A stretch of 64,000 bases of DNA from Escherichia phage ECO340P1: sequence record OP172791. One strand, given 5' to 3'. Made by a program: the position numbers and the translations under genes. Positions 2-13,528 of the stretch are shown piece after piece. Below the pieces are notes generated by a model. That model was not told where the DNA came from, ran no database searches, and saw only the letters and a list, made by a program, of their open reading frames with translations. Within the stretch, counting starts at the first letter, position 1; each line of letters begins with the position of its first letter.

Positions 2-355
2 GTTGATGTAATCTTTGCAGTAGATTCTGTTCCGGCAGTGATCGCAGTAACACAAGAACCTCTGCTTGTATTCTCTTCGATGTTATGTGCAATCTTAGGT
101 CTACGTGCTCTGTTCTTTGTTCTTAGTGTTGCACTGAAGTATCTGGTTCACTTGGAGAAAGCAGTTATTGTGGTTCTGGTGTTTGTAGGTGTTAAACTAA
201 TGTATCACCCGTTTGCAGAAACGTTACATGAAAAAATGAGCTTCCTGCCAGCGCACATTGATCCAACTATTAGTATGTATATTGTCCTGGGCACATTAGC
301 TCTTGGTGTTATTGCAAGCTTTATCTTCCCTGAAAAAGAAGAAGCTACTGTTTAA
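2..355 (+). CDS. terC: TerC-family integral membrane protein, C-terminal fragment (5' end lies outside the window)
   Basis: Frame from nt 2 translates VDVIFAVDSVPAVIAVT...AILGLRALFF, matching the TerC-family DSxPA and AILGLR signatures; hydrophobic throughout; stop at 353-355. Confidence 0.7.
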   Translation, partial: VDVIFAVDSVPAVIAVTQEPLLVFSSMLCAILGLRALFFVLSVALKYLVHLEKAVIVVLVFVGVKLMYHPFAETLHEKMSFLPAHIDPTISMYIVLGTLALGVIASFIFPEKEEATV

Positions 356-361
356 TAAATG

Positions 362-387
362 AGCCTCCTTCGGGAGGCTATTTTATA
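362..387 (+). terminator. Rho-independent terminator after the TerC-like gene
   Basis: Stem AGCCTCC / GGAGGCT with TTCG loop, followed by ATTTTAT. Confidence 0.6.
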
Positions 388-397
388 GGAGAGATTT

Positions 398-748
398 ATG
401 AGTAATTTTGATGAAATTCAAGAACTTGTTTGGGATTTATCTGGTGATGTGGATTACATTTCAGATTATCTTTCAAAAGTTTACCCTGGGGTAAGCGTTA
501 TGATTGTGACCAAAGATCCAATTAATTTGCCTCCTAATGTTGTAGCTTGTTGTGGAAGTGGTTCAGGAGAAGTAGAGCCTGTATCTCGTTGGGAATTAAC
601 TAAAGCTGTTTCAAAACGAAACGGTGAAGTTTTGAATATTGATATTGAGCAAATATGGACTTCTCCAGCAGCCAAATGGAATGATCCAAATGGTTGGGAT
701 TTGTTCTTCTGGGATAATGAGACTGATGATGAGGTGTTTTTAAAATGA
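398..748 (+). CDS. hypothetical protein
   Basis: 116-aa ORF with ATG start directly after the terminator; no recognisable motif. Confidence 0.5.
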   Translation: MSNFDEIQELVWDLSGDVDYISDYLSKVYPGVSVMIVTKDPINLPPNVVACCGSGSGEVEPVSRWELTKAVSKRNGEVLNIDIEQIWTSPAAKWNDPNGWDLFFWDNETDDEVFLK

Positions 749-990
749 AATACTTGTTGGTTGTGTTTGAAAATATCTGTTTTGCAATAGGGTTGTTTGT
801 TGTAATTTTTGTATTGACAAGCGTAATCAACGGCAGTAAAGTGAGTTTATACCGAGATGGAGAGCAACTTTATTGCTTCTCTGGAGATTTCAAACACAGA
901 TGTATTAATAGCCAAAACGAGGAAAGCAAATATGAAAAAACTAGCCCTGATTTTAATTGGTTGTATCTTTTTAACAGCTTGCGAGGATGA
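745..990 (+). CDS. hypothetical small membrane protein
   Basis: 81-aa ORF with hydrophobic N-terminus; overlaps the lipoprotein start at 932 by 59 nt, so uncertain. Confidence 0.3.
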   Translation: MKYLLVVFENICFAIGLFVVIFVLTSVINGSKVSLYRDGEQLYCFSGDFKHRCINSQNEESKYEKTSPDFNWLYLFNSLRG

Positions 991-1369
991 AACAAATCCT
1001 GCACAATACCAACAACCTCCTCAACAATACGCTCAACAAGGATCTGACGGAGATACAACTATTATCAACAATGGTGGCGGTTCTAGTAGTAGCGGTGTTG
1101 GTGAGTTTGCTACAGGTATGTTGTTAGGGCATATGATGAGTGGCGGTAGTAATCGTAGCAGTGGGGATTATAACGATAACAGAACGATTATTAATAAGCA
1201 TTATAATACACCTAAACCGAAAACTAATTTTTATGGTAAGCCTAAACAAGAGATAAAAACTTATGAAAAGCCGAGACAAACTTTTAAAACAAATAGTAGC
1301 TATACAACTCGTAAATCTTACAATAGCCCTTTAAGTAAAAAGAGTTCATCTCGTAGCAAGCGACGTTAA
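932..1369 (+). CDS. lipoprotein (signal peptide with lipobox LTAC)
   Basis: Internal ATG at 932 preceded by AGGAAAG; N-terminus MKKLALILIGCIFLTAC is a classic lipoprotein signal; Q/G/S/N-rich body and basic C-terminus. Confidence 0.6.
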   Translation: MKKLALILIGCIFLTACEDETNPAQYQQPPQQYAQQGSDGDTTIINNGGGSSSSGVGEFATGMLLGHMMSGGSNRSSGDYNDNRTIINKHYNTPKPKTNFYGKPKQEIKTYEKPRQTFKTNSSYTTRKSYNSPLSKKSSSRSKRR

Positions 1370-1383
1370 TAAGGAGAAAAACA

Positions 1384-1977
1384 ATGACAATTTCTATTCG
1401 TACTTCCATTACAGGTGTTAAAAGTTTGCCTAATGCTTTGCAAATCACACGTGCTTTGAGGGATACGTTCTCTGCTGTGGATGAGCATAAGATGCTCGAT
1501 AATCTCTCAAATTGGCCCTATTTTCATTATTTTAAAAATGAAGACGACGAGTTTATAGACGCTGTTTCTTACGGTTATGATTTCGGTAAGGAGGTTTCTC
1601 CTGAAGAATTTGTAGCTATGGTGTTCCCAAACGGTTTGCCTACTCGCAGTAAACGTAAAAAAGGACCAAAAAACAAGAAACGTGCTACTAATAAAGCTAC
1701 CATTTTCTTTACTGATGGCACACAATATACGATTAAAGATTTTGAAGAGGTATCTTATACAGCAGGTGGGAGTCTTTCTTTCTACACCATCAAAAAACAA
1801 AACTATACGTTCAGCCATGTTTCTAACATGATTGAAATGTTAGTAGAAGATATTGAAAGCGTGGCTGTGTTAGGTATGCATAAAAGCTTTTTAATTACAA
1901 ATATTTCAGATTTCAGTGCAAGTTTATCTGGCCCTGATTTTGAAGCCACGACCACGCATTTCGCTTTTAAGGTGTAA
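1384..1977 (+). CDS. hypothetical protein
   Basis: 197-aa ORF with GGAGA RBS; no motif recognised. Confidence 0.5.
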   Translation: MTISIRTSITGVKSLPNALQITRALRDTFSAVDEHKMLDNLSNWPYFHYFKNEDDEFIDAVSYGYDFGKEVSPEEFVAMVFPNGLPTRSKRKKGPKNKKRATNKATIFFTDGTQYTIKDFEEVSYTAGGSLSFYTIKKQNYTFSHVSNMIEMLVEDIESVAVLGMHKSFLITNISDFSASLSGPDFEATTTHFAFKV

Positions 1978-1980
1978 GTT

Positions 1981-2571
1981 ATGCATACCGAGAGAGACTT
2001 GCAACTCTTGTGGTGGGAAGTGATGCAGGAAATAAAAGAAGATTTTCCTGTTTACTACAACATGTTACGTGAAGCAGGATATAAAGCTTGTGTTAGAAAC
2101 AAAGTGAATAACTCTTTCGGTTGGTGCAACTACCGAGATAAAATTGTTGTTGTAAATTGGCACTTGCATAAGAACTCCACAAGAGATATGATCGTGGATA
2201 CAATGAAGCACGAAATTGCTCATGCTATTGATGGTTGTATGGGTAAGTTTAGTAGGCACGGTGCTCATTGGCAAAAACTGGCAGCAGAATTAGGGGCTAA
2301 TCCTAAAGCCACTTCCAAAGAGCCGTTGAACCACGAATATAAATATGTTCTTGTTCTGGTAGATAGGTTTGCGACAAGATGTGTTAGAGGTTATAATCGT
2401 AAACCTAATCGCATGTACCCAGGTAAGCAACCTAATATGTGGTTGAAATCAGATAAAGAAGGGACCGAAGGAAAATTATGGTTGTATAAATGGGACGATT
2501 GGGTTAAAGTAGCTAAAGAGTACGGTGTTTCACCATATATAAGAGATGCAGAAGAGGAGAATGAAGAATGA
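1981..2571 (+). CDS. SprT-like zinc metallopeptidase domain protein
   Basis: HEIAHAIDGCMGKFSRHGAHW: HExxH plus downstream His and Trp, as in the SprT/WLM family. Confidence 0.5.
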   Translation: MHTERDLQLLWWEVMQEIKEDFPVYYNMLREAGYKACVRNKVNNSFGWCNYRDKIVVVNWHLHKNSTRDMIVDTMKHEIAHAIDGCMGKFSRHGAHWQKLAAELGANPKATSKEPLNHEYKYVLVLVDRFATRCVRGYNRKPNRMYPGKQPNMWLKSDKEGTEGKLWLYKWDDWVKVAKEYGVSPYIRDAEEENEE

Positions 2572-3680
2572 CAAGTCCATTTTTAAAAGCAGCTACTGGT
2601 GGTCAGAAGAAGCCTGAAATGAGCGTATTTGCTGCAACAACAGATGCAAGTAAATCTGTATTCGCTCCAAGCGTGTTAGATGCCAGTCCTGTTTATGCAC
2701 CAGCGGCACCGCAAGAAGTTCCAGTTTTGCCTTCTATGACCCGACAAGAGATTGAAGAGATTGGGGCAGAGGCAGGAACAACCTTGCGTTCCTTGAATGC
2801 CGAGGTGTTAAAACATCAACGTAGTAATCAAGGCGATCAGATGAGTGAACGACTCACAGCTTTGATTAAACAGGCAAAACAACTTGATCCAAACTCTATT
2901 AAACAAAGCAAGGGTATTACTAAACTCATTAAAAAAGTTATGGGTATGAAAGAAGACCTGTTCGGGGAGTTTGATAATGTTAATAACCGTATTGAAGAGT
3001 TGGTAAAGAACCTTCAAATGGATATTCGCAAAGAAGAAGATTCCTTGGTATATCTTGAAAAGCTGCATCAAGCTATTGGACAATATGCTGCAAGTTTGAA
3101 CCGAGATATGCAGCTTCTAACAGCAACCTATGAAAAAGAAGAACAAGCTTTGGCTGCTCTTCCAGAAGATGCAGTAGAACAGCGACAAGTGATCCGAGAT
3201 ACTTTGGATCTTCTGGAGATTCGTATTGCAGATTTAAAAGCATTGCGCCTACTGTGTGTCCAAATGGGACCGCGTGTACAAGGTATGCAAAAAGTTTCTG
3301 CAAGCTTAATGCGATCTGCGCGTAACATAGTAAATAATGTTATTCCTGCTTACTCTGCTAACTTCTCAATGTATATCGAGAGCTTACGTCAAATGAAAGC
3401 AGCAGAGACGCAGAATAACGTTCTTGATGAATTTAACCTGGCAATTAAACTGGGTAGCGATCTTGCCACACAGAATCAGATCGAAGCAGCAGCACTGGCT
3501 AACCGTCAAGTGTTGGATATTGAAACTCTGCGTCACGATCAGGAAAACTTGGTTAAGATGCTGGAAGAAACTAACCGCATCAATACGGAAGCCCGTGCTG
3601 CTCGTGTTGATTATATTAATGAAGTTCAATCTCTGGAAGACGGGATGGTAGCTGCTGTGAAACGAGGGCTTGGTAAATGA
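2568..3680 (+). CDS. TelA-like (toxic anion resistance) coiled-coil protein
   Basis: 370 aa, heptad-rich and charged, size and composition typical of the TelA/KlaB family; sits between TerC and TerD-family genes. Confidence 0.4.
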   Translation: MTSPFLKAATGGQKKPEMSVFAATTDASKSVFAPSVLDASPVYAPAAPQEVPVLPSMTRQEIEEIGAEAGTTLRSLNAEVLKHQRSNQGDQMSERLTALIKQAKQLDPNSIKQSKGITKLIKKVMGMKEDLFGEFDNVNNRIEELVKNLQMDIRKEEDSLVYLEKLHQAIGQYAASLNRDMQLLTATYEKEEQALAALPEDAVEQRQVIRDTLDLLEIRIADLKALRLLCVQMGPRVQGMQKVSASLMRSARNIVNNVIPAYSANFSMYIESLRQMKAAETQNNVLDEFNLAIKLGSDLATQNQIEAAALANRQVLDIETLRHDQENLVKMLEETNRINTEARAARVDYINEVQSLEDGMVAAVKRGLGK

Positions 3681-3874
3681 GAATCCGTATCTATATAATT
3701 GATGAAGACATTGGTGTCCGTTATGATGACGAAAAACGATTCGCACCGATGGGAGGCATATATCCCCCAAGTGTTCTAGCAGTTTGTCGTGATTGTTATA
3801 TTTATGAAGGTTGTCGTAACTTCCGTAAATTCGAACTCCTTGCAGATATTGACTTCAATGAGGAGGAGGAGTAA
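3677..3874 (+). CDS. hypothetical protein
   Basis: 65-aa ORF, start overlaps the upstream stop. Confidence 0.35.
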   Translation: MRIRIYIIDEDIGVRYDDEKRFAPMGGIYPPSVLAVCRDCYIYEGCRNFRKFELLADIDFNEEEE

Positions 3875-4047
3875 TGAAAATATTACGAGTGAATATTGAA
3901 ACTGCTTGGTGTGGATGCAATGAGGTTGTTGATATTGAGATTGAAGAGGATATGTCTCAAGAAGATATCGAAGATCTTGCAAAAGAAACATTCCAGGATT
4001 ATTGTAACTACGGGTTCCATATTTTAGAGGAGGGAGAAGATGTTTAA
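3874..4047 (+). CDS. hypothetical small Cys-containing protein (57 aa, below the ORF-track cutoff)
   Basis: ATG at 3874 overlapping the upstream TAA, GGAGGAGGAG RBS, open to TAA at 4045-4047. Confidence 0.3.
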   Translation: MKILRVNIETAWCGCNEVVDIEIEEDMSQEDIEDLAKETFQDYCNYGFHILEEGEDV

Positions 4048-4243
4048 CTACGAGAACGACCCTAACATTATCCAGTTAACTCGACAAGAACTGATCACAA
4101 TCATGGAAGATGCTTTTATCGATGGGTGGAAGACTCAAAACTATGATTGGAGTGGCCCAGAAGACTTTCTGCGTCTTCATAAAGAGTATGACGAGTCCAG
4201 TGAGACGACTATTGCCATTGACGATCTTAAGGCAGGTGTATAA
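4040..4243 (+). CDS. hypothetical protein
   Basis: 67-aa ORF, start overlaps the upstream gene end. Confidence 0.4.
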   Translation: MFNYENDPNIIQLTRQELITIMEDAFIDGWKTQNYDWSGPEDFLRLHKEYDESSETTIAIDDLKAGV

Positions 4244-4812
4244 TGGGTTGCTTTAGTTTTCTGTGTAAGGAGTCGGGCAAAGCTGCCCTCTCCACCTCTT
4301 TCGATGGATCTCCTTGTTATCTCTTTCTACTGAAAGATGGAAAGGTTATCGAAGAGATGCACGGCAATTATGATAGTTATGGGCGTGTCTTCTCCAGTAA
4401 GCAGGATGCTCACGGGAACAGAGAAAGCTTTAAATGGACTATACCTTGGAGCGACGTTTGTGATCTTATGTTCTCTGTAAACCGTGGAGACGGTATTGCT
4501 ATGGTTTTAGCAGAACACTTTACAGGAGAAGCCCCCACAGAACGATCCGAGGATGATCCTAATCAAGGTTGGGGAGACGGAGACGGAGAAGAAGAAGAGG
4601 ATTATTTCTACAGCACCGAAAATAATATTTTCAAACGTGTTGACAACCCTTATCATAAAGTGCATAATGTCCTCACTGAAACAGAAGACGACAAAATGGA
4701 AATTGAAGAAGATGATCCTCTTGTAACACTTCCTATAAGTGAGTTACAAAAGATCACTAAGGAAGCTTACGATTTGGGCTTCAAAATTGGTAGAGGAGGT
4801 ATGCGTGTTTAG
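4243..4812 (+). CDS. hypothetical acidic protein
   Basis: 189-aa ORF with a D/E-rich central region. Confidence 0.5.
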   Translation: MGCFSFLCKESGKAALSTSFDGSPCYLFLLKDGKVIEEMHGNYDSYGRVFSSKQDAHGNRESFKWTIPWSDVCDLMFSVNRGDGIAMVLAEHFTGEAPTERSEDDPNQGWGDGDGEEEEDYFYSTENNIFKRVDNPYHKVHNVLTETEDDKMEIEEDDPLVTLPISELQKITKEAYDLGFKIGRGGMRV

Positions 4813-5083
4813 ATTCAATATTCAAGAAGAAAAAAGTCAAGATTTACCTATTGCTTTCGAAGATCTTGACGTAGGGGCAACATTCATGTATTATGATGCC
4901 TATGAAGACGCAGGGTTGGATACCTACCGTAACTTGGTGTTCATTAAAAATTCCACAAACAGTGCGATTTGTATTAATGGATCACTAGCACAACGAGGCT
5001 ATACTCATTGCATCCCACCAGATACAAATATGGTGGAAGTAGATTTAGAAGTTACCAATATTACACTTAAGAAGGAGAAATAA
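4805..5083 (+). CDS. small conserved protein, paralog of 6105-6374
   Basis: GTG start at 4805 after AGGAGGT; shares LDVGxTFxY...GLD...VxLxVTxITLK with the 6105 ORF. Confidence 0.5.
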   Translation: MFRFNIQEEKSQDLPIAFEDLDVGATFMYYDAYEDAGLDTYRNLVFIKNSTNSAICINGSLAQRGYTHCIPPDTNMVEVDLEVTNITLKKEK

Positions 5084-5084
5084 T

Positions 5085-5879
5085 ATGTCCGAGAAAATCA
5101 GCCTGAAAAAACGTCAAGAAAACCTTGCTTTCTCTCTGAAAAAGAATAAGAACCTGAATGAAGGTAAGATTGTTCTTCGTGTAGCATGTGCTCTAGATAT
5201 TTCTGGTAGTATGCATGGTCTATATTCTAGTGGGGTAGTGAGTGATTTTGTAGGTAAACTGCTTCCTTTTGGTATGCTGTTCGACGATAATCAACAAATT
5301 GATATGTGGGCCTTCAATACGAGTTCCCAAGAGCTTACTCCAGCAACAGCAGACGTTTACGATGACTATGTTGGTAAATGTATGCGTAATGTTCGTATCG
5401 GAGGTGGAACAAATTACGCCCCTGTAATGGCAGATATCTACGATGAGTATTTTGGCACTGTTACCAAATATATTACCACTAAACAAGTGGTACAAGAGGA
5501 GGCTCCAAAGAAAGGCTTCTTTAATCGTCTGCTTGGTAAAACTGAAACAGTGTCTGTAGAGCGTGAAAAAGTTGTAGCTGTATCTGAACCAGGTGCTGAC
5601 GTTACCCCTGGTGTTGTATTCTTCCAGACGGATGGTGAGAATGGTGATCCTAGTGCTGTTCGTCGTCTTATTGAAGAGAATAAGAATAAACCTATTTATT
5701 GGTTCATGGTTGGCGTTGGTAATGAGAAGTTTGGGTTCCTGAAAGAACTGGCAAATGCTTATGATAATGTTGGTTTTATTGGCATTAAAGATTTAGACTT
5801 GACAGATTCAGAGCTTTATGACAAACTCTTATCTGAGGAGTTCGGAGAGTGGGTTGTTAAAGTAGGTGCTAAAAAATGA
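5085..5879 (+). CDS. vWA domain protein (vWA-TerF/TerY-like)
   Basis: TerD-like KISLKK N-terminus followed by a MIDAS motif DISGSM and a vWA-like fold pattern. Confidence 0.6.
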   Translation: MSEKISLKKRQENLAFSLKKNKNLNEGKIVLRVACALDISGSMHGLYSSGVVSDFVGKLLPFGMLFDDNQQIDMWAFNTSSQELTPATADVYDDYVGKCMRNVRIGGGTNYAPVMADIYDEYFGTVTKYITTKQVVQEEAPKKGFFNRLLGKTETVSVEREKVVAVSEPGADVTPGVVFFQTDGENGDPSAVRRLIEENKNKPIYWFMVGVGNEKFGFLKELANAYDNVGFIGIKDLDLTDSELYDKLLSEEFGEWVVKVGAKK

Positions 5880-6124
5880 TCGACGAGCTTGCCTCTCAAG
5901 TCATAGAAAATTATTGGCGCGAGAGAGAAGCTTTCATTATGCGCAGTCTCAAAGAGTATTTCATTGGGACTGTGCGAATGGAAGATATTGTAAGTAGAGT
6001 GGAGATTCATGTATGGCCCGATTATGAAGAATGGGTTGACAAAGAAAATGAAAATGCTATAATTCTTCGTATATACAAACCGGAGATAACATTAGGAGGA
6101 AGAAGTGTTAAACTTCGAAATTGA
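5876..6124 (+). CDS. hypothetical protein
   Basis: 82-aa ORF, translationally coupled to the upstream gene. Confidence 0.4.
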   Translation: MIDELASQVIENYWREREAFIMRSLKEYFIGTVRMEDIVSRVEIHVWPDYEEWVDKENENAIILRIYKPEITLGGRSVKLRN

Positions 6125-6374
6125 TGAGCAAAAAGTAAATAAACGATGCCTTACCATTAAAGATTTGGATGTAGGAGATACTTTCGTCTATGAAAATGCA
6201 TTTGACGAAAATGGTTTAGACCTTAGTGAAATCATTGTTTATTTAAAAGTAGATGATGGGGAAAATGATTATTCTGCTGTAGAACTAAACCATCATGCAC
6301 AATTAGTATCAATCCAAAACACATCTAAGCTTTTGGAAGTAGAATTGACTGTAACTGGTATTACACTTAAATAA
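6105..6374 (+). CDS. small conserved protein, paralog of 4805-5083
   Basis: GTG start after AGGAGGA; same conserved motifs as the 4805 ORF. Confidence 0.5.
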   Translation: MLNFEIDEQKVNKRCLTIKDLDVGDTFVYENAFDENGLDLSEIIVYLKVDDGENDYSAVELNHHAQLVSIQNTSKLLEVELTVTGITLK

Positions 6375-6389
6375 TAGAGGAGACAAAAG

Positions 6390-6992
6390 ATGACTGATAA
6401 AATTTCCCTGAAAAAAGGCTCTAGCGAAAAAATTTCCCTGAAGAAAGTTGCTCCGGCTCTGAAAGAACTGCGCCTGGAATTCTCTTGGAAATCTGATTCT
6501 AAACTGGATCTGGATGTAAGTGCACTGGTTTGTCGTCACAATGCCGCTGGTAATCCTGAAATGCTGTCTGCACGTCATCTGGTTTGCTATGCTAACAAGT
6601 TTGATCCTGAACGTTCTACCTTCGCTGGTGACGATGTTCGTGATGGAACTGGCAGCATGGAGCAGATTGATATTACTCTGGCTAAAATCTCTCCTGATGC
6701 ACAAGAGATTGCCTTTGTTCTGACCATTGATGATGATACAGGTCTGAAACGTTTTGGTCATGCTTCTGAAGGTATGCTTAAAATCTTCGACTCCGAGCGC
6801 AATGTGGAAATTCTGGATTTTGACTTCCTGGCTCCTGAAGTAGCTGGCAACACAATCTGCCACGTGGCTTCCTTGGTTCGTGAAGATGGGGAATGGAAGC
6901 TGAAAGCATATGGTGTAGGTAAAGCTGGTCTGGATATTTGTGATGTGGTGATGGCCTTCGGTGGTAAAAAAGAATGGTATGAATGTCCATAA
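6390..6992 (+). CDS. terD: TerD-family protein (TerD/TerE/TerZ-like)
   Basis: KISLKKG...KISLKK repeat, LDLDVSALV, GDDVRDGTG and EWKLKAYGVGKAG match the TerD-domain signature regions. Confidence 0.8.
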   Translation: MTDKISLKKGSSEKISLKKVAPALKELRLEFSWKSDSKLDLDVSALVCRHNAAGNPEMLSARHLVCYANKFDPERSTFAGDDVRDGTGSMEQIDITLAKISPDAQEIAFVLTIDDDTGLKRFGHASEGMLKIFDSERNVEILDFDFLAPEVAGNTICHVASLVREDGEWKLKAYGVGKAGLDICDVVMAFGGKKEWYECP

Positions 6993-7010: not shown

Positions 7011-7030
7011 GAGGGGGAGAAATCCCCCTC
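7011..7030 (+). terminator. GC-rich hairpin after the TerD gene
   Basis: Perfect 8-bp stem GAGGGGGA / TCCCCCTC with GAAA loop; weak U-tract. Confidence 0.5.
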
Positions 7031-7059
7031 TTGCAATAAAGCCTCTATCGTGTTATACT
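7031..7059 (+). promoter_or_regulatory. sigma70-like promoter (TTGCAA-N17-TATACT)
   Basis: -35 TTGCAA at 7031-7036, 17-nt spacer, -10 TATACT at 7054-7059, upstream of the 7092 gene. Confidence 0.55.
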
Positions 7060-7091: not shown

Positions 7092-7613
7092 TTGCTGATA
7101 AAAAACTTTGTAACAGTTGCGTTACTATCCTTAACTGCTTTTACATTTACACCTGTTGTGGCGAAAGCCGAAGCTGCAAACGTAAAAACCGCTAAAGTAG
7201 TTCACAAATGTACAAAGCAATATAATGATAAAATTCTATTAGCTTGTGCAATTTACGCAGAAGGTCGCGGTCTGGGTAAAAAAGGAATGAATGCCGTTGG
7301 GAATGTGGTAATCAACAGAAGAAATGATACCTACTTCCCTAACACAGTCAGAGGAGTCTTGTTCCAGAAAGGACAATTCTCATATGCGAAAACTTTTAAC
7401 GTAACAGAGAAAGATAAGTGGCAGGAAGCAAAAGCAATAGCGGAACGTTTACTTTATTTAGAGAAACATTTTCCTGAATTGCGGTCTGTTTTAGATGTTA
7501 CTAAAGGTGCTCTATACTTCAAGAAACGGAATATAAGGACAAACTGGGAACGTGATATGCGTCTTGTTTATCGAGATAAAGTGCATGGTTTCTATCTACC
7601 AAAGGGGAGTTAA
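7092..7613 (+). CDS. secreted cell wall hydrolase (SleB/Hydrolase_2-like), candidate endolysin
   Basis: TTG start after AAGGAGG; N-terminal signal peptide ...VVAKA/EA; motifs AIYAEGRGLG...VGNVVINR...FPNT...QFSY typical of SleB-family hydrolases. Confidence 0.6.
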   Translation: MLIKNFVTVALLSLTAFTFTPVVAKAEAANVKTAKVVHKCTKQYNDKILLACAIYAEGRGLGKKGMNAVGNVVINRRNDTYFPNTVRGVLFQKGQFSYAKTFNVTEKDKWQEAKAIAERLLYLEKHFPELRSVLDVTKGALYFKKRNIRTNWERDMRLVYRDKVHGFYLPKGS

Positions 7614-8298: not shown

Positions 8299-8314
8299 TA
8301 TAACGGAGGGGAGA

Positions 8315-8878
8315 ATGATTTATTATATTACTCCCTATCTGACAGGAAATATCGGCAAGGCTATCAATGAAGCCATTGCCGTTCTTCCAGATGATAGTTG
8401 GGTGTGTTTAAGAGATACCGATACAATGTTCCTCCTACCTGATCAACCATCTATGCTTGAAGAGCTTGTTATGTCAAATCCGCCTTTTGATGTAATAGGT
8501 GCAACTTGTAACAGGTTAGGCAGTGGTTATCAGCTTTTCTCTAACCAAATTAACGATGATCCAGATATTCTAAACCATATAGAATATGCTAAGATTGCAA
8601 GAGAATATCATAAAGTGAGTGTTGAAGAAGTTCCTTTCGGAACACCTCTAGCAGGTTTCTTCTTGCTTTTTAGAAAATCATTGTGGAATGAAATTCCTTT
8701 CGAAGAAAAATCTATCCAATTCGACTTAATTTTCTCTCGCACTTTACATGAAAAAGGAAAGAGGTTAGGATTGATGCGGGGAATGTATCTGTTTCACATT
8801 TACAGATTAGGTCAAACAAATCCTCAACGGTCTATACATCATTTATTACACTGTCATGATCACAGTAAAACTATTTAG
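8315..8878 (+). CDS. hypothetical protein, possibly glycosyltransferase-related
   Basis: 187-aa ORF with GGAGGGGAGA RBS; first gene of a glycosyltransferase block; no firm motif. Confidence 0.4.
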   Translation: MIYYITPYLTGNIGKAINEAIAVLPDDSWVCLRDTDTMFLLPDQPSMLEELVMSNPPFDVIGATCNRLGSGYQLFSNQINDDPDILNHIEYAKIAREYHKVSVEEVPFGTPLAGFFLLFRKSLWNEIPFEEKSIQFDLIFSRTLHEKGKRLGLMRGMYLFHIYRLGQTNPQRSIHHLLHCHDHSKTI

Positions 8879-8886
8879 GAGAGAAA

Positions 8887-9570
8887 ATGGAAAATATTAA
8901 AATTGGAGTGGGTGTTATCACTGTAGGTGTCCGTCCACTTAAAGACTACCTTGTAACAGATCCACGTGCAGATTTTCGAGTATTCAACGATCCAGATCGT
9001 AAAGGTGTAGCTTATGCCAGGAATGAACTTATGCACCAGTTTTATGAAGAAGGTTATGATTATTGGTTTATTTTTGACGACGATTGCTACCCAGTCATGG
9101 AGGGATGGGAAACATACTTTGTAGGTCAAGCTGTCTCTGGAGGATGGGATTTCTTTGGTATGCCGGAGTATTTCAAAGATAAAGTTGTTGGAAGCAAAGG
9201 AGAAGTTATTCTCTGGGAACTTGCAATGTGTCAATTTGCAATGTATTCTCGTGCCGTTGTTGAGAAGATGGGTTATTTCCGTCCTTACACTCACGGCTAT
9301 GGTTTTGAAGATGCTGAATGGGGACACCGTTTGCAAGCTGCTGGTTTGAATCATGGTATTCAGGCAACACCTTGTCCACTTCGTATCATGGCTTATATCC
9401 ACCCAGACGATGTTTTTGGAAACAATCCTATGCCTTTTGCTAATCTGACAAAAGAAGAGAAAGAAGCTGCTATCGGGATTAACTGGGAAGAATATAAAGC
9501 ATCTTTAGAGGATATTAAAAATGGGAAAATCCGAATTTCCTATGAGGAGGCACTGGCACATGTCAAATAA
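8887..9570 (+). CDS. glycosyltransferase, GT-A fold (family 2-like)
   Basis: N-terminal beta-alpha-beta region GVGVITVGVR and DxD-type motif FDDDC. Confidence 0.55.
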   Translation: MENIKIGVGVITVGVRPLKDYLVTDPRADFRVFNDPDRKGVAYARNELMHQFYEEGYDYWFIFDDDCYPVMEGWETYFVGQAVSGGWDFFGMPEYFKDKVVGSKGEVILWELAMCQFAMYSRAVVEKMGYFRPYTHGYGFEDAEWGHRLQAAGLNHGIQATPCPLRIMAYIHPDDVFGNNPMPFANLTKEEKEAAIGINWEEYKASLEDIKNGKIRISYEEALAHVK

Positions 9571-10507
9571 AAAATGGTCTAAACTAAAAATTGATGCAAA
9601 ACCTCATAGCGGTTGTGACTATCATCGTATTGTTATGCCATTTAACAACAATAATTTTCAACCTAAGAAAGATATTGTTGTGTTTAACCGTATCCACTCT
9701 AAAGGTGCAGAATACGTTTTATCTTTGAAACGTCAAGGTGTTAAGGTTGTTGTAGATTTAGATGATTTTTACCAACTTAATCCAGAGCATTATTTAGCAA
9801 GTCTATACGAGTCAAACACTCATGCTATTGTAGCTATGGTTAAGCTTGCTGATGTGGTTATTGTGACTACAGAATATTTGGCATATAAGATCCGTCACTT
9901 AAATAGAAATGTCGTTGTGATCCGAAATGCACTTCCTTTTGATAGCGGACAATTCACTTTGTCAAATGATCGTTCATCCGGTACCCCTGTTGTATGGGCT
10001 GGCGGTGCTAGTCACGAACCAGATTTACGACTAGTCTCTAATACTTTCGATGATGAACTTCTTACTATTGCGGGATATGAAGCATCACAAAGCATCACGG
10101 GACAAGAGTGGATTAAGATTCGCAGAAATTTACCAAATGCCAAATATAAAGCTGCTGTAAAAGATTTAGATAATTACATGAGTGTTTACGAAAGTCATGC
10201 TATTGCTATAGCTCCTTTGGTAGACAATGATTTTAATAATTGTAAAAGTAATCTCAAAATCCTGGAAGCTGGAGCAAAAGGTATTCCGATTATTTGTTCT
10301 AAGGTATTACCTTATTTTAACCCTGTAGATGCTCGCGCTGTTGCTTACGCAGAGAATAAAGCAGAATGGCATTACGAAATTGTTAAGCTTCTTCGCAATC
10401 CAAACTATCGGGAAGATCGTGGCTTGTTCTTGGCTGAACATGTTCGAACACATTATAATCTGGCAGATGCAAACGAGTTGCGACGCCAGGTTATTGAAAG
10501 TTTGTAG
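9560..10507 (+). CDS. glycosyltransferase, GT-B fold (GT1/GT4-like), paralog of 10515-11459
   Basis: ATG at 9560 after GAGGAGG; C-terminal KSNLKILEAGAKGIPIICS resembles the GT-B nucleotide-sugar binding motif; clear paralogy with the next gene. Confidence 0.55.
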   Translation: MSNKKWSKLKIDAKPHSGCDYHRIVMPFNNNNFQPKKDIVVFNRIHSKGAEYVLSLKRQGVKVVVDLDDFYQLNPEHYLASLYESNTHAIVAMVKLADVVIVTTEYLAYKIRHLNRNVVVIRNALPFDSGQFTLSNDRSSGTPVVWAGGASHEPDLRLVSNTFDDELLTIAGYEASQSITGQEWIKIRRNLPNAKYKAAVKDLDNYMSVYESHAIAIAPLVDNDFNNCKSNLKILEAGAKGIPIICSKVLPYFNPVDARAVAYAENKAEWHYEIVKLLRNPNYREDRGLFLAEHVRTHYNLADANELRRQVIESL

Positions 10508-10514
10508 GTGAAGT

Positions 10515-11459
10515 ATGGGACAAATAATTCTTGACAATCGTAACGGAATCAATTATAGTGTCTGCGATTTCCATAGGGTAGTGCTGCCTTACTCAAGGCA
10601 GTTCTCTTCACAACCTAAATACAACGTTTTCGTTTTTAACGGAGTGCCAACAAAAGGTAAAGAGGGCTTTTTAGCCCTTAAAAACCTAGGCTTTAAAATG
10701 GTTATGGATTTGGATGACTCTTTAGTTATTCCAAAAGGACACATGTTAGAAGGTATTTTTGAATCAGGTATTCGTGAACATTTAAAATGGTTTTTAGAGC
10801 ACAGTGATCTTGTTACAACTACGACACCTGCCTTGCAAGTTGAACTTTCACAATACAATGATAATGTGCACATAATCCCTAATGGACTTCCTTATGACGA
10901 AGGTCAATTTGTGTTGACCCGTGATCGCTACTCCAAAACTCCATTAGTCTGGGCTGGAAGTGAAACACATAAGCAAGATTTGGCTATCTTGCCCGATTTT
11001 GGTAAAGATCTTACAATATGTGGTTTTCGTAGGGATTCTGAAGTTTTAAGTAGTCGTGAATGGTCTGTAATCAGAGAAAATGTAGCACCAACTTGTGTTT
11101 ATGAAGGTGTAAGACCATATGCCAACTACATGGAATCTTACGATGGTCATCAAATCAGTCTTGCGCCACTGATTGATAACGTGTTTAATAATGCAAAAAG
11201 CAATCTTAAAATTCTTGAGGCAGGTGCTAAGGGTTTACCTTTGATCTGTTCTCCTCGTGAGAATTATCATACACAAGAGTTTAAAGATCTGTTGTTCTTT
11301 GCTGAAACACCTTCCGAGTGGAAAGATATTACGGAATACTTATTAAGTGCTCCCGATGTTTGCATGGAGAAAGGATTAGCATTAGCTAAGTATGTCAGGA
11401 CTCATTATCACATTGATGTGTTGAATGAGCGTCGTAGACTTTTATTTGAGGAGCTATAA
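10515..11459 (+). CDS. glycosyltransferase, GT-B fold (GT1/GT4-like), paralog of 9560-10507
   Basis: Shares CDYHRIVMPF/CDFHRVVLPY, PVVWAGGASHEPDL/PLVWAGSETHKQDL and KSNLKILEAGAKG motifs with the upstream gene. Confidence 0.55.
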   Translation: MGQIILDNRNGINYSVCDFHRVVLPYSRQFSSQPKYNVFVFNGVPTKGKEGFLALKNLGFKMVMDLDDSLVIPKGHMLEGIFESGIREHLKWFLEHSDLVTTTTPALQVELSQYNDNVHIIPNGLPYDEGQFVLTRDRYSKTPLVWAGSETHKQDLAILPDFGKDLTICGFRRDSEVLSSREWSVIRENVAPTCVYEGVRPYANYMESYDGHQISLAPLIDNVFNNAKSNLKILEAGAKGLPLICSPRENYHTQEFKDLLFFAETPSEWKDITEYLLSAPDVCMEKGLALAKYVRTHYHIDVLNERRRLLFEEL

Positions 11460-11749: not shown

Positions 11750-13528
11750 GTGTCGCACATTATAACTAAATATGGATTTGATGTTGATCTTAGCAAGGAA
11801 GGGCATACAGGTTGTCCGCGCTGCATGAAAAATGGCAAGGATCGCTCTCGTAATAACCTGATGGTTTATGGATTAGATTCTAATGGAGAGCATAAAGGTG
11901 CTAAGTGCTTTGCGTGTGAATACACTATTCCTAGCGTAGAATGGTTACGAGAAAATGGTGAAGTTTTAGAAGAAGAGGAGGAGATTGTGGGTTCGGAATT
12001 TAATAAACAGATTCATCGTAAAATTGTTCAAGAAACATCAACCAACCCACGTGGTTATCGAGGAATTAAAGAAAAAGTTTCATCTTTCTATGGTGTTCGT
12101 TATGAATACCGTCAGGAAGGGGATCAGATGGTAGTAGAAAGTTGTTTATATCCGACTACTATCGGTAAAGAATTGGTTGGTTTTAAGCGTCGTATTCATC
12201 CTAAAGATTTCAGTAAACCTATTGGTCAAGTAGGTAAAGATGTAGATCTTTTTGGACAAATTCGTTTTGCAGACCGTTCTCATACTGTGGTAATTACAGG
12301 TGGTGAACACGATGCTCTGGCAGCTTATCAAATGCTATCTGAAAACTTGGACAACAAGTATGAACTTCCAGCAGTAGTTAGTGGCACAACTGGTGAAACC
12401 AGTATGTATAAACAAGTTCAGGCACAATATCCTTTCTTTGAAAAATTTAAGAAGATTATTGTTTGCATGGATAATGACAAAGCAGGTAATGAAGCATTTG
12501 AAAATATTGTTAAGGTGCTGCCTCGTAACAAAGTCTACCGTATGCAGATGGATCTTAAGGATGCCAATCAGTATCTGGAAGAAGGTCGTGCAAAAGATTT
12601 CGTAAAAGCTTTTTGGAGTGCTCGTCTATACACCCCAGCAGGTGTTTATGCTTCTAATGTCTTGTATGAAGCTGCATTAGAATGCTTGGAATCCAAGATG
12701 ATTACCTTGCCTCCTTTTATGCGTGTAGCTGCAAACATGCTGGGTGGTGGTTTAGTAGAGGAAGAGATTACAGTCATCCTGGCAAAGACCAGTATCGGTA
12801 AAACTTTAATGGTGAACGAGATCACCAAACATATTATTGTTGCGCACCCAGAACATACCCTAGGTATCCTGTCCTTGGAAGCAACTTATAAGAAATATTC
12901 TCGTAACCTGTTGTCCTCGTTCCTGCATATTCCTCTACACAGGAAAACACCGGAAGAGAAATTTCAAATCTTGGAAGAGAATAAAGAAAAAATCCTAGAT
13001 TTTTACGAAAGAGAAGATGGATCACCACGTTTTTATGTGTGTGATGATCGTGGAGCAGATGTGGAGTCTATCAAAGAAAAAGTTTTGGAGATGATCATCT
13101 ATTTTGGAGTAACAATTCTTGTTATCGACCCTTATTCTGATTTGCTTTCTGGTATGGATGTTCAAGCCCAGGAAGAGTTAGCAACATGGTTGAAGCGCAT
13201 CATGAAAGAGTATGCTATAACTATTATCGTCATCTCACACGTTAAGAAATCGGCTAATGGTGGCAATGAACACTTAACAGAGGACGATGCAATGGGTAGT
13301 AGTTTCTTGGCTAAAGGTGCTGGTATTACCTTGGCTTTGGAACGAGATAAAGCCGCTGAAGACCCTGTAGAACGCAATACGACTCATTGCTTTATCCTAA
13401 AAAACCGTGAGTTCTCGGAAACTGGTCCGGCAGGGCAGTTTTACTATGACATTAGAACTGCAACTCTGCATGACAAAGAGCAGTATTTCAACAATCCTGC
13501 TAATTTGCCTACGGATAGCAACTATTAA
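11750..13528 (+). CDS. bifunctional DNA primase-helicase (T7 gp4-like)
   Basis: GTG start after AGGAGA; N-terminal zinc ribbon CPRC...CFAC, TOPRIM motifs (GGEHDALAAY, CMDNDKAGNEA), helicase Walker A KTSIGKT. Confidence 0.85.
   Translation: MSHIITKYGFDVDLSKEGHTGCPRCMKNGKDRSRNNLMVYGLDSNGEHKGAKCFACEYTIPSVEWLRENGEVLEEEEEIVGSEFNKQIHRKIVQETSTNPRGYRGIKEKVSSFYGVRYEYRQEGDQMVVESCLYPTTIGKELVGFKRRIHPKDFSKPIGQVGKDVDLFGQIRFADRSHTVVITGGEHDALAAYQMLSENLDNKYELPAVVSGTTGETSMYKQVQAQYPFFEKFKKIIVCMDNDKAGNEAFENIVKVLPRNKVYRMQMDLKDANQYLEEGRAKDFVKAFWSARLYTPAGVYASNVLYEAALECLESKMITLPPFMRVAANMLGGGLVEEEITVILAKTSIGKTLMVNEITKHIIVAHPEHTLGILSLEATYKKYSRNLLSSFLHIPLHRKTPEEKFQILEENKEKILDFYEREDGSPRFYVCDDRGADVESIKEKVLEMIIYFGVTILVIDPYSDLLSGMDVQAQEELATWLKRIMKEYAITIIVISHVKKSANGGNEHLTEDDAMGSSFLAKGAGITLALERDKAAEDPVERNTTHCFILKNREFSETGPAGQFYYDIRTATLHDKEQYFNNPANLPTDSNY

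Follow-up and report, generated by a model that had tools for sequence, protein, structure and literature searches.

The first 7 kb of a 64,000-nucleotide (nt) stretch of Escherichia phage ECO340P1 (sequence record OP172791; the whole stretch is hereafter called the window) carries genes related to bacterial tellurite resistance (ter) clusters. In this region, the four-family hub of a phage-type minimal Ter system, consisting of TerC, TelA, a vWA-TerF-like protein, and TerD, appears to be complete, and we regard the identification of the Ter families as practically certain. Judged from substitution rates, the four genes are under strong purifying selection and have the character of long-resident, functional phage genes. 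We tentatively favor the reading that they form a minimal Ter system for envelope and metal stress that would be expressed early and protect the infected cell, and we give this reading a little less than an even chance. The initial annotation had taken these genes and an SprT-like peptidase gene for a single early operon and for the best candidate for an undescribed system. Its family assignments and its analogy to bacterial ter clusters held, but the novelty did not: GenBank records that are 96 to 98% identical already name the products TelA-like, TerD family, SprT-like, and TerC family, and clusters of this kind have been noted for phi92, phiKp34, PhiPsa374, and jumbo phages. The cluster is thus already known, being annotated in >100 phage genomes and discussed since 2012, and the finding itself adds little because the genes have been annotated and discussed before. 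GenBank labels the phage TerD "general stress protein 16U," which is YceD.

Ter families encoded in the first 7 kb

Seventeen open reading frames (ORFs) were scanned with Pfam and judged against the curated gathering cutoffs. All five families named in the initial annotation (TerC, SprT-like, TelA, vWA-TerF-like, and TerD) scored above these cutoffs, and the 12 other ORFs had no Pfam match above threshold. All genes of the first 7 kb lie on the + strand, as annotated initially, and most are preceded by Shine-Dalgarno sites. The window begins inside terC (positions 2 to 355), so that only the C-terminal 117 amino acids (aa) of this TerC-family (Alx-type) inner membrane protein are present and the gene start lies upstream. 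The fragment matched Pfam TerC at profile positions 109 to 177 of 178 (E = 4.6e-16; 59.5 bits versus a cutoff of 27.8), contained both the DSVPA and the AILGLR strings, and showed four hydrophobic segments in the hydropathy profile. The full-length orthologue of phage SKA64 scored 318.9 bits with the NCBIfam model TIGR03718 (TerC/Alx; cutoff, 246.4). TelA (2568 to 3680, +), of the toxic anion resistance family, matched PF05816 over residues 59 to 361 (E = 3.2e-33; 115.7 bits versus 30) and PHROG 5890, "tellurite resistance" (1.5e-139).

The product of 5085 to 5879 (+) is a stand-alone vWA-TerF-like protein (PF10138; E = 1.6e-37; 130.1 bits versus 29.4) with an intact MIDAS, the residues of which (D38-x-S40-G41-S42, T109, and T182-D183-G184) were invariant in an alignment of phage and bacterial relatives. 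The initial annotation had also given this protein a TerD-like N terminus, and that part did not stand: the Pfam scan detected no TerD domain in it, and the resemblance is confined to an ISLKK...SLKK (LxK) motif of about 20 residues. This motif is invariant in stand-alone vWA-TerF-like proteins and aligned to the linker that follows the TerD domain in genuine TerD-vWA fusions (P0062 and P0059), so it is a feature of the vWA-TerF family and not a TerD remnant. In this phage, the resemblance has been sharpened by a local duplication: the DNA at 5034 to 5111 and 6334 to 6416 is 76 to 77% identical, the copies lie 1,300 to 1,305 nt apart, and each holds the end of a small ORF, a ribosome-binding site, and the first KISLKK codons of the vWA or the TerD gene. 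Phage phi92 carries the first copy only.

A single TerD-domain protein was found in the 64-kb window (6390 to 6992, +). It is unambiguous, scoring 98.9 bits with PF02342 (E = 3.2e-28; cutoff, 25.3) and aligning over 179 residues to the solved TerD of Klebsiella pneumoniae (PDB 2KXT); it also aligned to PDB 3IBZ. The residues invariant across the alignment (D40, D82, G86, and E91) are retained. The conserved acidic motif of Ca2+-binding TerD proteins is reported as GDN(R/L)TG(E/A)GDGDDE (Pan et al. 2011); the window protein reads GDDVRDG--TGSMEQ, in which the acidic GDGDDE cluster of K. pneumoniae TerD is replaced by TGSMEQ. Phage phi92 has the same replacement, whereas other phage TerDs retain an acidic cluster, G(D/E)G.DE.

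The predicted SprT-like zinc metallopeptidase (1981 to 2571, +; PF10263, 4.2e-09, 36.7 bits versus 25.6) has HEIAH followed by HGAHW, that is, the HExxH motif recognized in the initial annotation and the downstream His ligand, and its stop codon overlaps the start of TelA. It failed the NCBIfam SprT equivalog model (21 bits versus 175) and is therefore not an orthologue of Escherichia coli SprT. The gene precedes TelA in the window, in SKA64 and phiWec188, and in loci L012, L014, L016 to L018, L021, and L022 of the set described below (with Pfam confirmation in L017), but a hidden Markov model (HMM) scan of the loci showed it to be missing from phi92-type, L023, and FBKp34-type clusters. We therefore rejected it as a core Ter component and regard it as a neighbor of patchy distribution, present in some sublineages only, and not as the module member it had been taken for. 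A PDB sequence search gave no solved relatives of TelA, the vWA protein, or the SprT-like protein.

Distribution and selection

The window belongs to a Phapecoctavirus (subfamily Stephanstirmvirinae), a phAPEC8-like phage that infects E. coli and has myovirus relatives. In a megablast search with the 7-kb region, 104 phage records matched, 61 of them over 80% or more of the query length; at the top (96 to 98% identical) were ESCO37, REC, Mt1B1_P17, SKA64, tuntematon, and phAPEC8-type phages. Several 96%-identical records carried Campylobacter, Acinetobacter, Klebsiella, or Pseudomonas phage labels, which probably reflect mislabeled hosts or contamination and not true host range.

HMMs of our own were scanned over the ORFs of 39 loci (L numbers) comprising GenBank phages, 28 IMG/VR contigs, one bacterial ter cluster, and one prophage-like element. 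Three genes stand before terC in SKA64, phiWec188, phi92, and a number of uncultured relatives; they encode a HAD hydrolase, the phosphoribosyltransferase PRTase_3, and a Macro protein of the Poa1p-like type. The Stephanstirmvirinae-like order is HAD-PRTase_3-Macro and then TerC, TelA, vWA-TerD, and SleB, with further genes on either side of TelA. In relatives, PRTase_3 scored 143.9 bits with PF15610, a family defined from Ter-associated operons, and the HAD hydrolase remained below the Pfam cutoff. Everything 5' of terC is read from relatives; we infer the HAD-PRTase_3-Macro genes for this phage because the window starts inside terC and the relatives are 97% identical. Phages of Caulobacter, Rhizobium, and Pseudomonas, along with other uncultured phages, have a compact TelA-vWA-TerC-TerD cassette. 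In Acinetobacter phage ME3, the set is vWA-TerC-TerD, and neither our HMM nor Pfam detected TelA there. Homologues of vWA were found in 219 phage records, of TelA in 224, and of PRTase_3 in 156; the co-occurrence of the same genes in the 219 (vWA) and 224 (TelA) records excludes chance as the origin of the cluster. Among the matches listed, the PRTase_3-bearing phage groups (E. coli/Klebsiella Stephanstirmvirinae, Rhizobium, Brevundimonas/Caulobacter, and Xanthomonas XaC1) all carry vWA, and in RHph_TM30 and Y65 the two genes lie about 87 kb apart (PRTase_3 at ~5 kb and vWA at ~92 kb).

Ratios of dN to dS, computed against phiWec188 and phi92 with dS partly saturated, were 0.02 to 0.08 for TerC, 0.04 to 0.09 for TelA, 0.06 to 0.13 for TerD, 0.05 to 0.14 for vWA, and 0.06 for the SprT-like gene. 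Between phage lineages, TerC was 94 to 97% identical at the aa level despite a dS of 0.66 to 0.82, which points to constraint and not to recent transfer. Recent capture of terC from the host was rejected, as blastn (DNA similarity) gave no match to terC in 5,426 complete E. coli genomes. In the sister lineages L017, L018, L022, and L023, a DUF475-type protein of the TerC superfamily (354 aa) replaces the Alx-type protein (324 aa) at the syntenic position; the two types are similar at the motif level only, so that the swap is one between distant subfamilies, and it argues that a TerC-type transporter is needed at this position. That the genes provide literal tellurite resistance or are functionless passengers from the host, as the database label "tellurite resistance" might suggest, is scarcely credible against the strong purifying selection, the retention across genera, and the missing DNA match of terC in E. 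coli. Long-term metalloid resistance of the host would also be of no gain to a virulent phage, and the authors of the PhiPsa374 study deem tellurite resistance unlikely because components are missing.

Comparison with described Ter clusters

Known clusters with the TerC, TelA, vWA-TerF-like, and TerD families found here are those of phi92 (gp172 to gp187; Justusliebigvirus), phiKp34/FBKp34, PhiPsa374 (Otagovirus), ME3, and the Caulobacter phiCbK-like jumbo phages. Identity to the phi92 orthologues was 95% for full-length TerC (94% over the window fragment), 79% for TelA, 67% for vWA, and 81% for TerD, and phi92 shares the gene order of the window, including the SleB-like gene that follows. HAD and PRTase_3 are linked in FBKp34 and phi92, as in Phapecoctavirus. 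Phapecoctavirus departs from these clusters in having an SprT-like gene in front of TelA, the small paralogue in two copies, and one more ORF separating vWA from TerD; its TerD is single, whereas FBKp34 has two. Its genes run TerC...TelA...vWA-TerD, unlike the compact cassette (TelA-vWA-TerC-TerD) found in phages of Caulobacter, Rhizobium, and Pseudomonas.

With the bacterial and plasmid terZABCDEF clusters (IncHI2 R478, E. coli O157, and K. pneumoniae) and with the bacterial locus of our set (L009), the phage has in common TerC, TerD-domain, vWA-TerF-like, and TelA proteins and, judged from its relatives, the linkage to PRTase and HAD genes. The phage set is, however, much reduced: L009, which was retrieved via its TerD-vWA fusion, encodes a C-C lyase, StiP/PRTase_1-PELOTA, PRTase_2, TerC, five TerD-domain proteins including TerF, AIM24, a Ter-type ATP-grasp protein, TelA, and PP2C, whereas the phage set is without TerB, the TerZ/A/E paralogues, the TerD-vWA fusion, AIM24, ATP-grasp, C-C lyase, and PP2C. 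PRTase_3 stands in Phapecoctavirus in place of the bacterial PRTase_1 (StiP) and PRTase_2. Both L009 and ME3 link Ter genes to PRTase_1, PRTase_2, and HAD, and ME3 retains PRTase_2, HAD, and StiP. A possible further parallel is the envelope stress operon yceCDEFGH of Bacillus subtilis, whose products include three TerD proteins together with homologues of TerC (YceF/MeeF) and TelA (YceH). It likewise unites TerD, TerC, and TelA at a single locus and is not known to include TerB or biosynthetic genes; it differs in having no known vWA-TerF-like protein, in its three TerD paralogues, and in its control by sigma-W, sigma-M, and sigma-B, in contrast to the phage-borne sigma-70 promoters.

Transcription signals

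The genes had been placed in one operon, but their transcription signals show that they do not form one. Directly after terC lies an intrinsic-terminator-like hairpin (362 to 379, +; AGCCTCC-TTCG-GGAGGCT followed by ATTTTAT), found by terminator scan and in the sequence, and in relatives terC has its own sigma-70-type promoter, TTGAC(A/T/G) with a 17-nt spacer and a −10 box of TAAGAT, TATAGT, or TAGAAT, plus a leader hairpin. A promoter scan identified a consensus sigma-70 promoter (6036 to 6063, +; TTGACA-16 nt-TATAAT with an extended −10 TG) upstream of 6105 to 6374 and terD; this is the only perfect (12/12) sigma-70 consensus in the window, and a counterpart lies immediately before terD in both phi92 and FBKp34. 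The genes at 1384 to 6374 form a chain in which stop and start codons overlap or abut. The downstream boundary of the unit is marked by a GC-rich hairpin after terD (7011 to 7030, +; GAGGGGG-AGAAAT-CCCCCTC) without a T run, which is followed by a promoter-like site before the SleB-like gene (7031 to 7059; promoter scan). Early expression of the Ter genes is plausible because the promoters are of host type and the genes lie among those for nucleotide metabolism and replication.

The terC promoter and a leader stem-loop before the ribosome-binding site were seen in four lineages (L001 [SKA64], 8300 to 8380, a little upstream of where the window begins; L005, 6800 to 6870; L017, 3710 to 3790; L014, 4665 to 4735). 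The stems differ wholly in sequence among these lineages, but three of them share the loop ATAG(G/T); FBKp34 is without the stem-loop. Riboswitch control of terC was considered and rejected: the leader holds a simple hairpin only, and across the homologous 25-kb locus Rfam gave no match at E ≤ 1 to the yybP-ykoY Mn2+ riboswitch, which controls bacterial alx, or to any other.

Function of the phage Ter genes

From the gene identities, conservation, purifying selection, and promoter signals, we infer complex formation, early expression, and an exclusion or protection phenotype in the following scheme. Host RNA polymerase would transcribe the Ter genes from the sigma-70-type promoters soon after infection, and TerC, as a metal transporter, would enter the inner membrane. 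The soluble TerD, MIDAS vWA, and TelA proteins would assemble on its cytoplasmic face into a complex that depends on divalent cations and is possibly tuned by a nucleoside-like ligand made by the upstream HAD phosphatase and the Ter-associated PRTase_3. The altered envelope and ion state would then shield the cell during the latent period from superinfecting phages, pore-forming colicins, and envelope or metal stress. The phage would thereby turn to its own use the inhibition of phages and the resistance to colicins that plasmid ter clusters confer. The scheme is supported by the host-type promoters that precede terC and terD in several genera. In bacteria, as summarized in PMC12054061, phage inhibition and resistance to colicins are both lost in terC, terD, and terZ insertion mutants, deletion of terC in K. 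pneumoniae results in larger plaques and lower resistance to Zn and Mn, and TerC-TerD is reported to be the minimal functional unit. Superinfection exclusion has been proposed for the Ter systems of jumbo and "related smaller" phages (Iyer et al. 2021, PMC7824862). Host takeover or counter-defense, the role proposed in the initial annotation, is treated here as a hypothesis.

Several points weigh against a protective stress system. TerB, TerZ/A/E, the TerY kinase/phosphatase switch, ATP-grasp, and C-C lyase were unmatched in the ORFs scanned, and because the phage set lacks them, bacterial ter phenotypes may not transfer to it. Ca2+ binding by the phage TerD may be reduced, since its acidic GDGDDE cluster is lost. 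The models of PADLOC-DB, including TerY-P, matched none of TerC, TelA, vWA, and TerD; weak matches were obtained for other proteins only, including a DarG macro domain match (4e-10) for the upstream Macro protein. In several phages, the Ter module adjoins NAD and ADP-ribose genes, which hints at a different theme (see below).

A narrower role in metal homeostasis seems to us unlikely. TerC (Alx or DUF475 type) would move Mn2+ or Zn2+ (or Ca2+), with TerD, vWA, and TelA as metal-sensing regulators and without exclusion of competitors, so as to adjust the cytoplasmic metal supply to the needs of phage enzymes or to load metal onto exported phage proteins, for example the secreted SleB-like hydrolase encoded alongside. 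The Alx subfamily assignment above the NCBIfam cutoff and the conserved paired acidic motifs of TerC agree with such a role, as do the anaerobic ribonucleotide reductase genes just upstream and the signal peptide-bearing hydrolase that follows TerD directly or after one or two ORFs in Stephanstirmvirinae-like loci. The TerC homologues MeeF and MeeY of B. subtilis reportedly metalate exoenzymes with Mn2+. The lowered Zn and Mn resistance of the K. pneumoniae terC deletion, as summarized in PMC12054061, fits as well. However, no metal requirement is known for SleB/CwlJ-type hydrolases, and the Rfam search of the 25-kb locus did not find the Mn riboswitch that controls alx in bacteria. Metal homeostasis also leaves unexplained why TelA, vWA, and PRTase/HAD genes travel with TerC in unrelated phages.

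Genes linked to NAD and ADP-ribose

In Phapecoctavirus and phi92, the Macro gene lies between PRTase_3 and terC. The upstream Macro protein of the relatives is 42% identical to that of PhiPsa374, which is itself encoded between an NAMPT-like gene and the Ter cassette with a Prs-like gene nearby. In a prophage-like element of Neobacillus, the genes TerD-vWA-TerC-Prs-like-NAMPT-like are closely packed in a single array, and viral contig L038 has a Prs-like gene, vWA-Macro, and an NAMPT-like gene in this order. Macro or NARP1-like genes were seen beside Ter or vWA-TerF genes in L001 (6104 to 8067), L003 (1 to 3876), L008 (9404 to 13928), and L038 (7747 to 17703), with Prs-like and NAMPT-like genes in three independent elements.

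These neighborhoods recall the NARP1-AP (Adps-Adpp-Namat) pathway of NAD+ reconstitution, both in the Poa1p-like Macro gene that adjoins the phage Ter block upstream of the window and in the Prs-like and NAMPT-like genes that flank Ter or vWA genes in PhiPsa374, L008, and L038. The Poa1p-like Macro proteins of NARP1 operons are ADPR-1''-phosphate phosphatases that overcome aRES defense (bioRxiv 10.64898/2026.01.28.702374), and the phage Macro protein may be such an Adpp-type (anti-aRES) phosphatase, whether independent of the Ter proteins or functionally linked to them. An alternative in this direction is nucleotide- or NAD-linked counter-defense, in which HAD, PRTase_3, and Macro would make or recycle a ribosylated metabolite (ADP-ribose or an NAD+ derivative) that the Ter proteins sense, so that the block counters NAD+-depleting or nucleotide-signaling immunity. 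We consider it clearly unlikely. The position of Macro, its similarity to the PhiPsa374 protein, the Prs-like and NAMPT-like genes that flank TerD-vWA-TerC in the Neobacillus element and vWA-Macro in L038, and the anti-aRES activity of the NARP1 proteins are in its favor. However, Adps, Namat, and NAMPT homologues were not found in the 64-kb window, and no Adps or Namat homologue was found in the 9 kb upstream in SKA64. Ter proteins stand outside the published pathway, and genes for Macro, Prs, and NAMPT are all missing from the 10 kb around the Caulobacter and Rhizobium cassettes. The adjacency may just reflect the clustering of accessory genes in early regions: since NARP1-AP is independent of Ter proteins and neither Adps nor Namat has a homologue in the window, the link between Ter and NAD may be mere co-location.

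A broader idea, which we hold to be distinctly improbable, joins these genes to the stress system favored above: HAD-PRTase_3-Macro, TerC, TelA, vWA, and TerD would form one virus-encoded signal-and-response pathway, in which a ribosylated small molecule, possibly tied to ADP-ribose or NAD+, is read by TerD, vWA, and TelA at the membrane and switches a TerC-dependent ion or envelope state.

Small ORFs and flanking genes

In annotated SKA64, the region is flanked upstream by genes for a UvrD-type helicase, class III (anaerobic) ribonucleotide reductase, the HAD hydrolase, the phosphoribosyltransferase, and a macro-domain phosphatase and downstream by those for the SleB-like hydrolase, four glycosyltransferases, a primase/helicase, a Dam-like methylase, and DNA polymerase, all on one strand. 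In the window, the SleB/CwlJ-type cell wall hydrolase (7092 to 7613, +; Pfam Hydrolase_2, 1.3e-17) has a TTG start and an N-terminal signal-like hydrophobic segment. Its gene follows TerD directly or after one or two ORFs in Stephanstirmvirinae-like loci (L001, L005, L011 to L013, and L015 to L023); in FBKp34-type loci, it lies after TelA or further downstream. From the Ter block toward the primase/helicase gene (11750 to 13528), the four glycosyltransferase genes stand in a row (8315 to 11459, +); by the SKA64 annotation, two of them are GT2-like and the other two are GT1/WbuB-like paralogues.

Between terC and TelA, an acidic 116-aa protein (398 to 748, +) without a Pfam match belongs to PHROG 27498 (6e-80), and its orthologues follow terC in phiWec188 and FBKp34. 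It is followed by an 81-aa protein (745 to 990, +) with one N-terminal transmembrane segment in the hydropathy profile, orthologous to phi92 gp181, and by a predicted lipoprotein (932 to 1369, +, with the start as in SKA64; signal sequence and lipobox LTAC, MKKLALILIGCIFLTAC), the gene for which overlaps the preceding one and the phi92 homologue of which, gp180, is annotated with a signal peptide. The mature part of the lipoprotein is rich in Ser, Pro, and Gln, and its overlap with the gene for the 81-aa membrane protein differs from that of typical spanins; both proteins are weakly conserved in phi92. These two proteins may act on the envelope early in infection. The product of 1384 to 1977 (+; 197 aa) is a shortened member of the family of phi92 gp179 and a 288-aa phiWec188 protein that precedes TelA (BLASTP, 1e-42 to the phiWec188 protein and 3e-11 to gp179; no Pfam match); homologues were found in close relatives only and fell into two clusters.

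With several envelope-targeted products in the block and a conserved TerD-SleB adjacency, the genes might alternatively serve lysis timing or envelope remodeling: TerC, the 81-aa transmembrane protein, the lipoprotein, and the SleB-like hydrolase would stabilize the envelope or change cell shape (filamentation), delaying lysis and raising the burst size, and TelA may add a membrane-associating scaffold. The ter operon of Yersinia pestis has been studied for a role in filamentous growth (PMC4633105). We nonetheless find this very improbable, as related genomes are annotated with a separate endolysin and an Rz-like spanin (PMC13096147), the transmembrane protein and the lipoprotein are poorly conserved, and the core cassette of other phages has no adjoining hydrolase.

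Three small acidic ORFs with abutting or overlapping stop and start codons (3677 to 3874, 3874 to 4047, and 4040 to 4243; together 3677 to 4243, +) follow TelA and have orthologues in phiWec188. The second product gave a DUF7167 match below threshold, and the third matched phi92 gp176. The latter is 67 aa in the window and 132 aa in its SKA64 orthologue (L001, 13040 to 13438); this indel of about 190 bp is why megablast aligned several relatives in two pieces. The 189-aa product of 4243 to 4812 (+) belongs, by homologue and fold searches, to a very large and highly conserved phage family without a fold match that is probably not specific to Ter clusters. Its GDGDGEEEED run resembles the acidic motif of TerD, and we considered a hidden TerD- or TerB-like protein; this was rejected in view of the huge unrelated phage family and the missing fold match, and the run sits in a variable, low-confidence segment. 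Two small paralogous proteins are encoded directly upstream of the vWA gene (paralogue A, 4805 to 5083, +; PHROG 11278; orthologue of phi92 gp174) and directly upstream of terD (paralogue B, 6105 to 6374, +; BLASTP, 2e-14 to paralogue A). An 82-aa ORF (5876 to 6124, +) contains the internal promoter and is confined to Phapecoctavirus, with an orthologue in phiWec188 and none in phi92.

Implications

Of the bacterial loci for stress and phage resistance that are still without a mechanism, Ter clusters are among the most widespread. The stripped-down phage set (TerC, TerD, vWA, and TelA plus PRTase and HAD), retained under purifying selection, points to a minimal working set, and a 150-kb E. coli phage on a K-12 host offers a tractable system for the function of Ter proteins. 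If the signal-and-response pathway outlined above were true, it would give the phage control of superinfection, of abortive infection triggers, or of lysis timing and would be a viral counterpart of bacterial nucleotide-signaling immunity.

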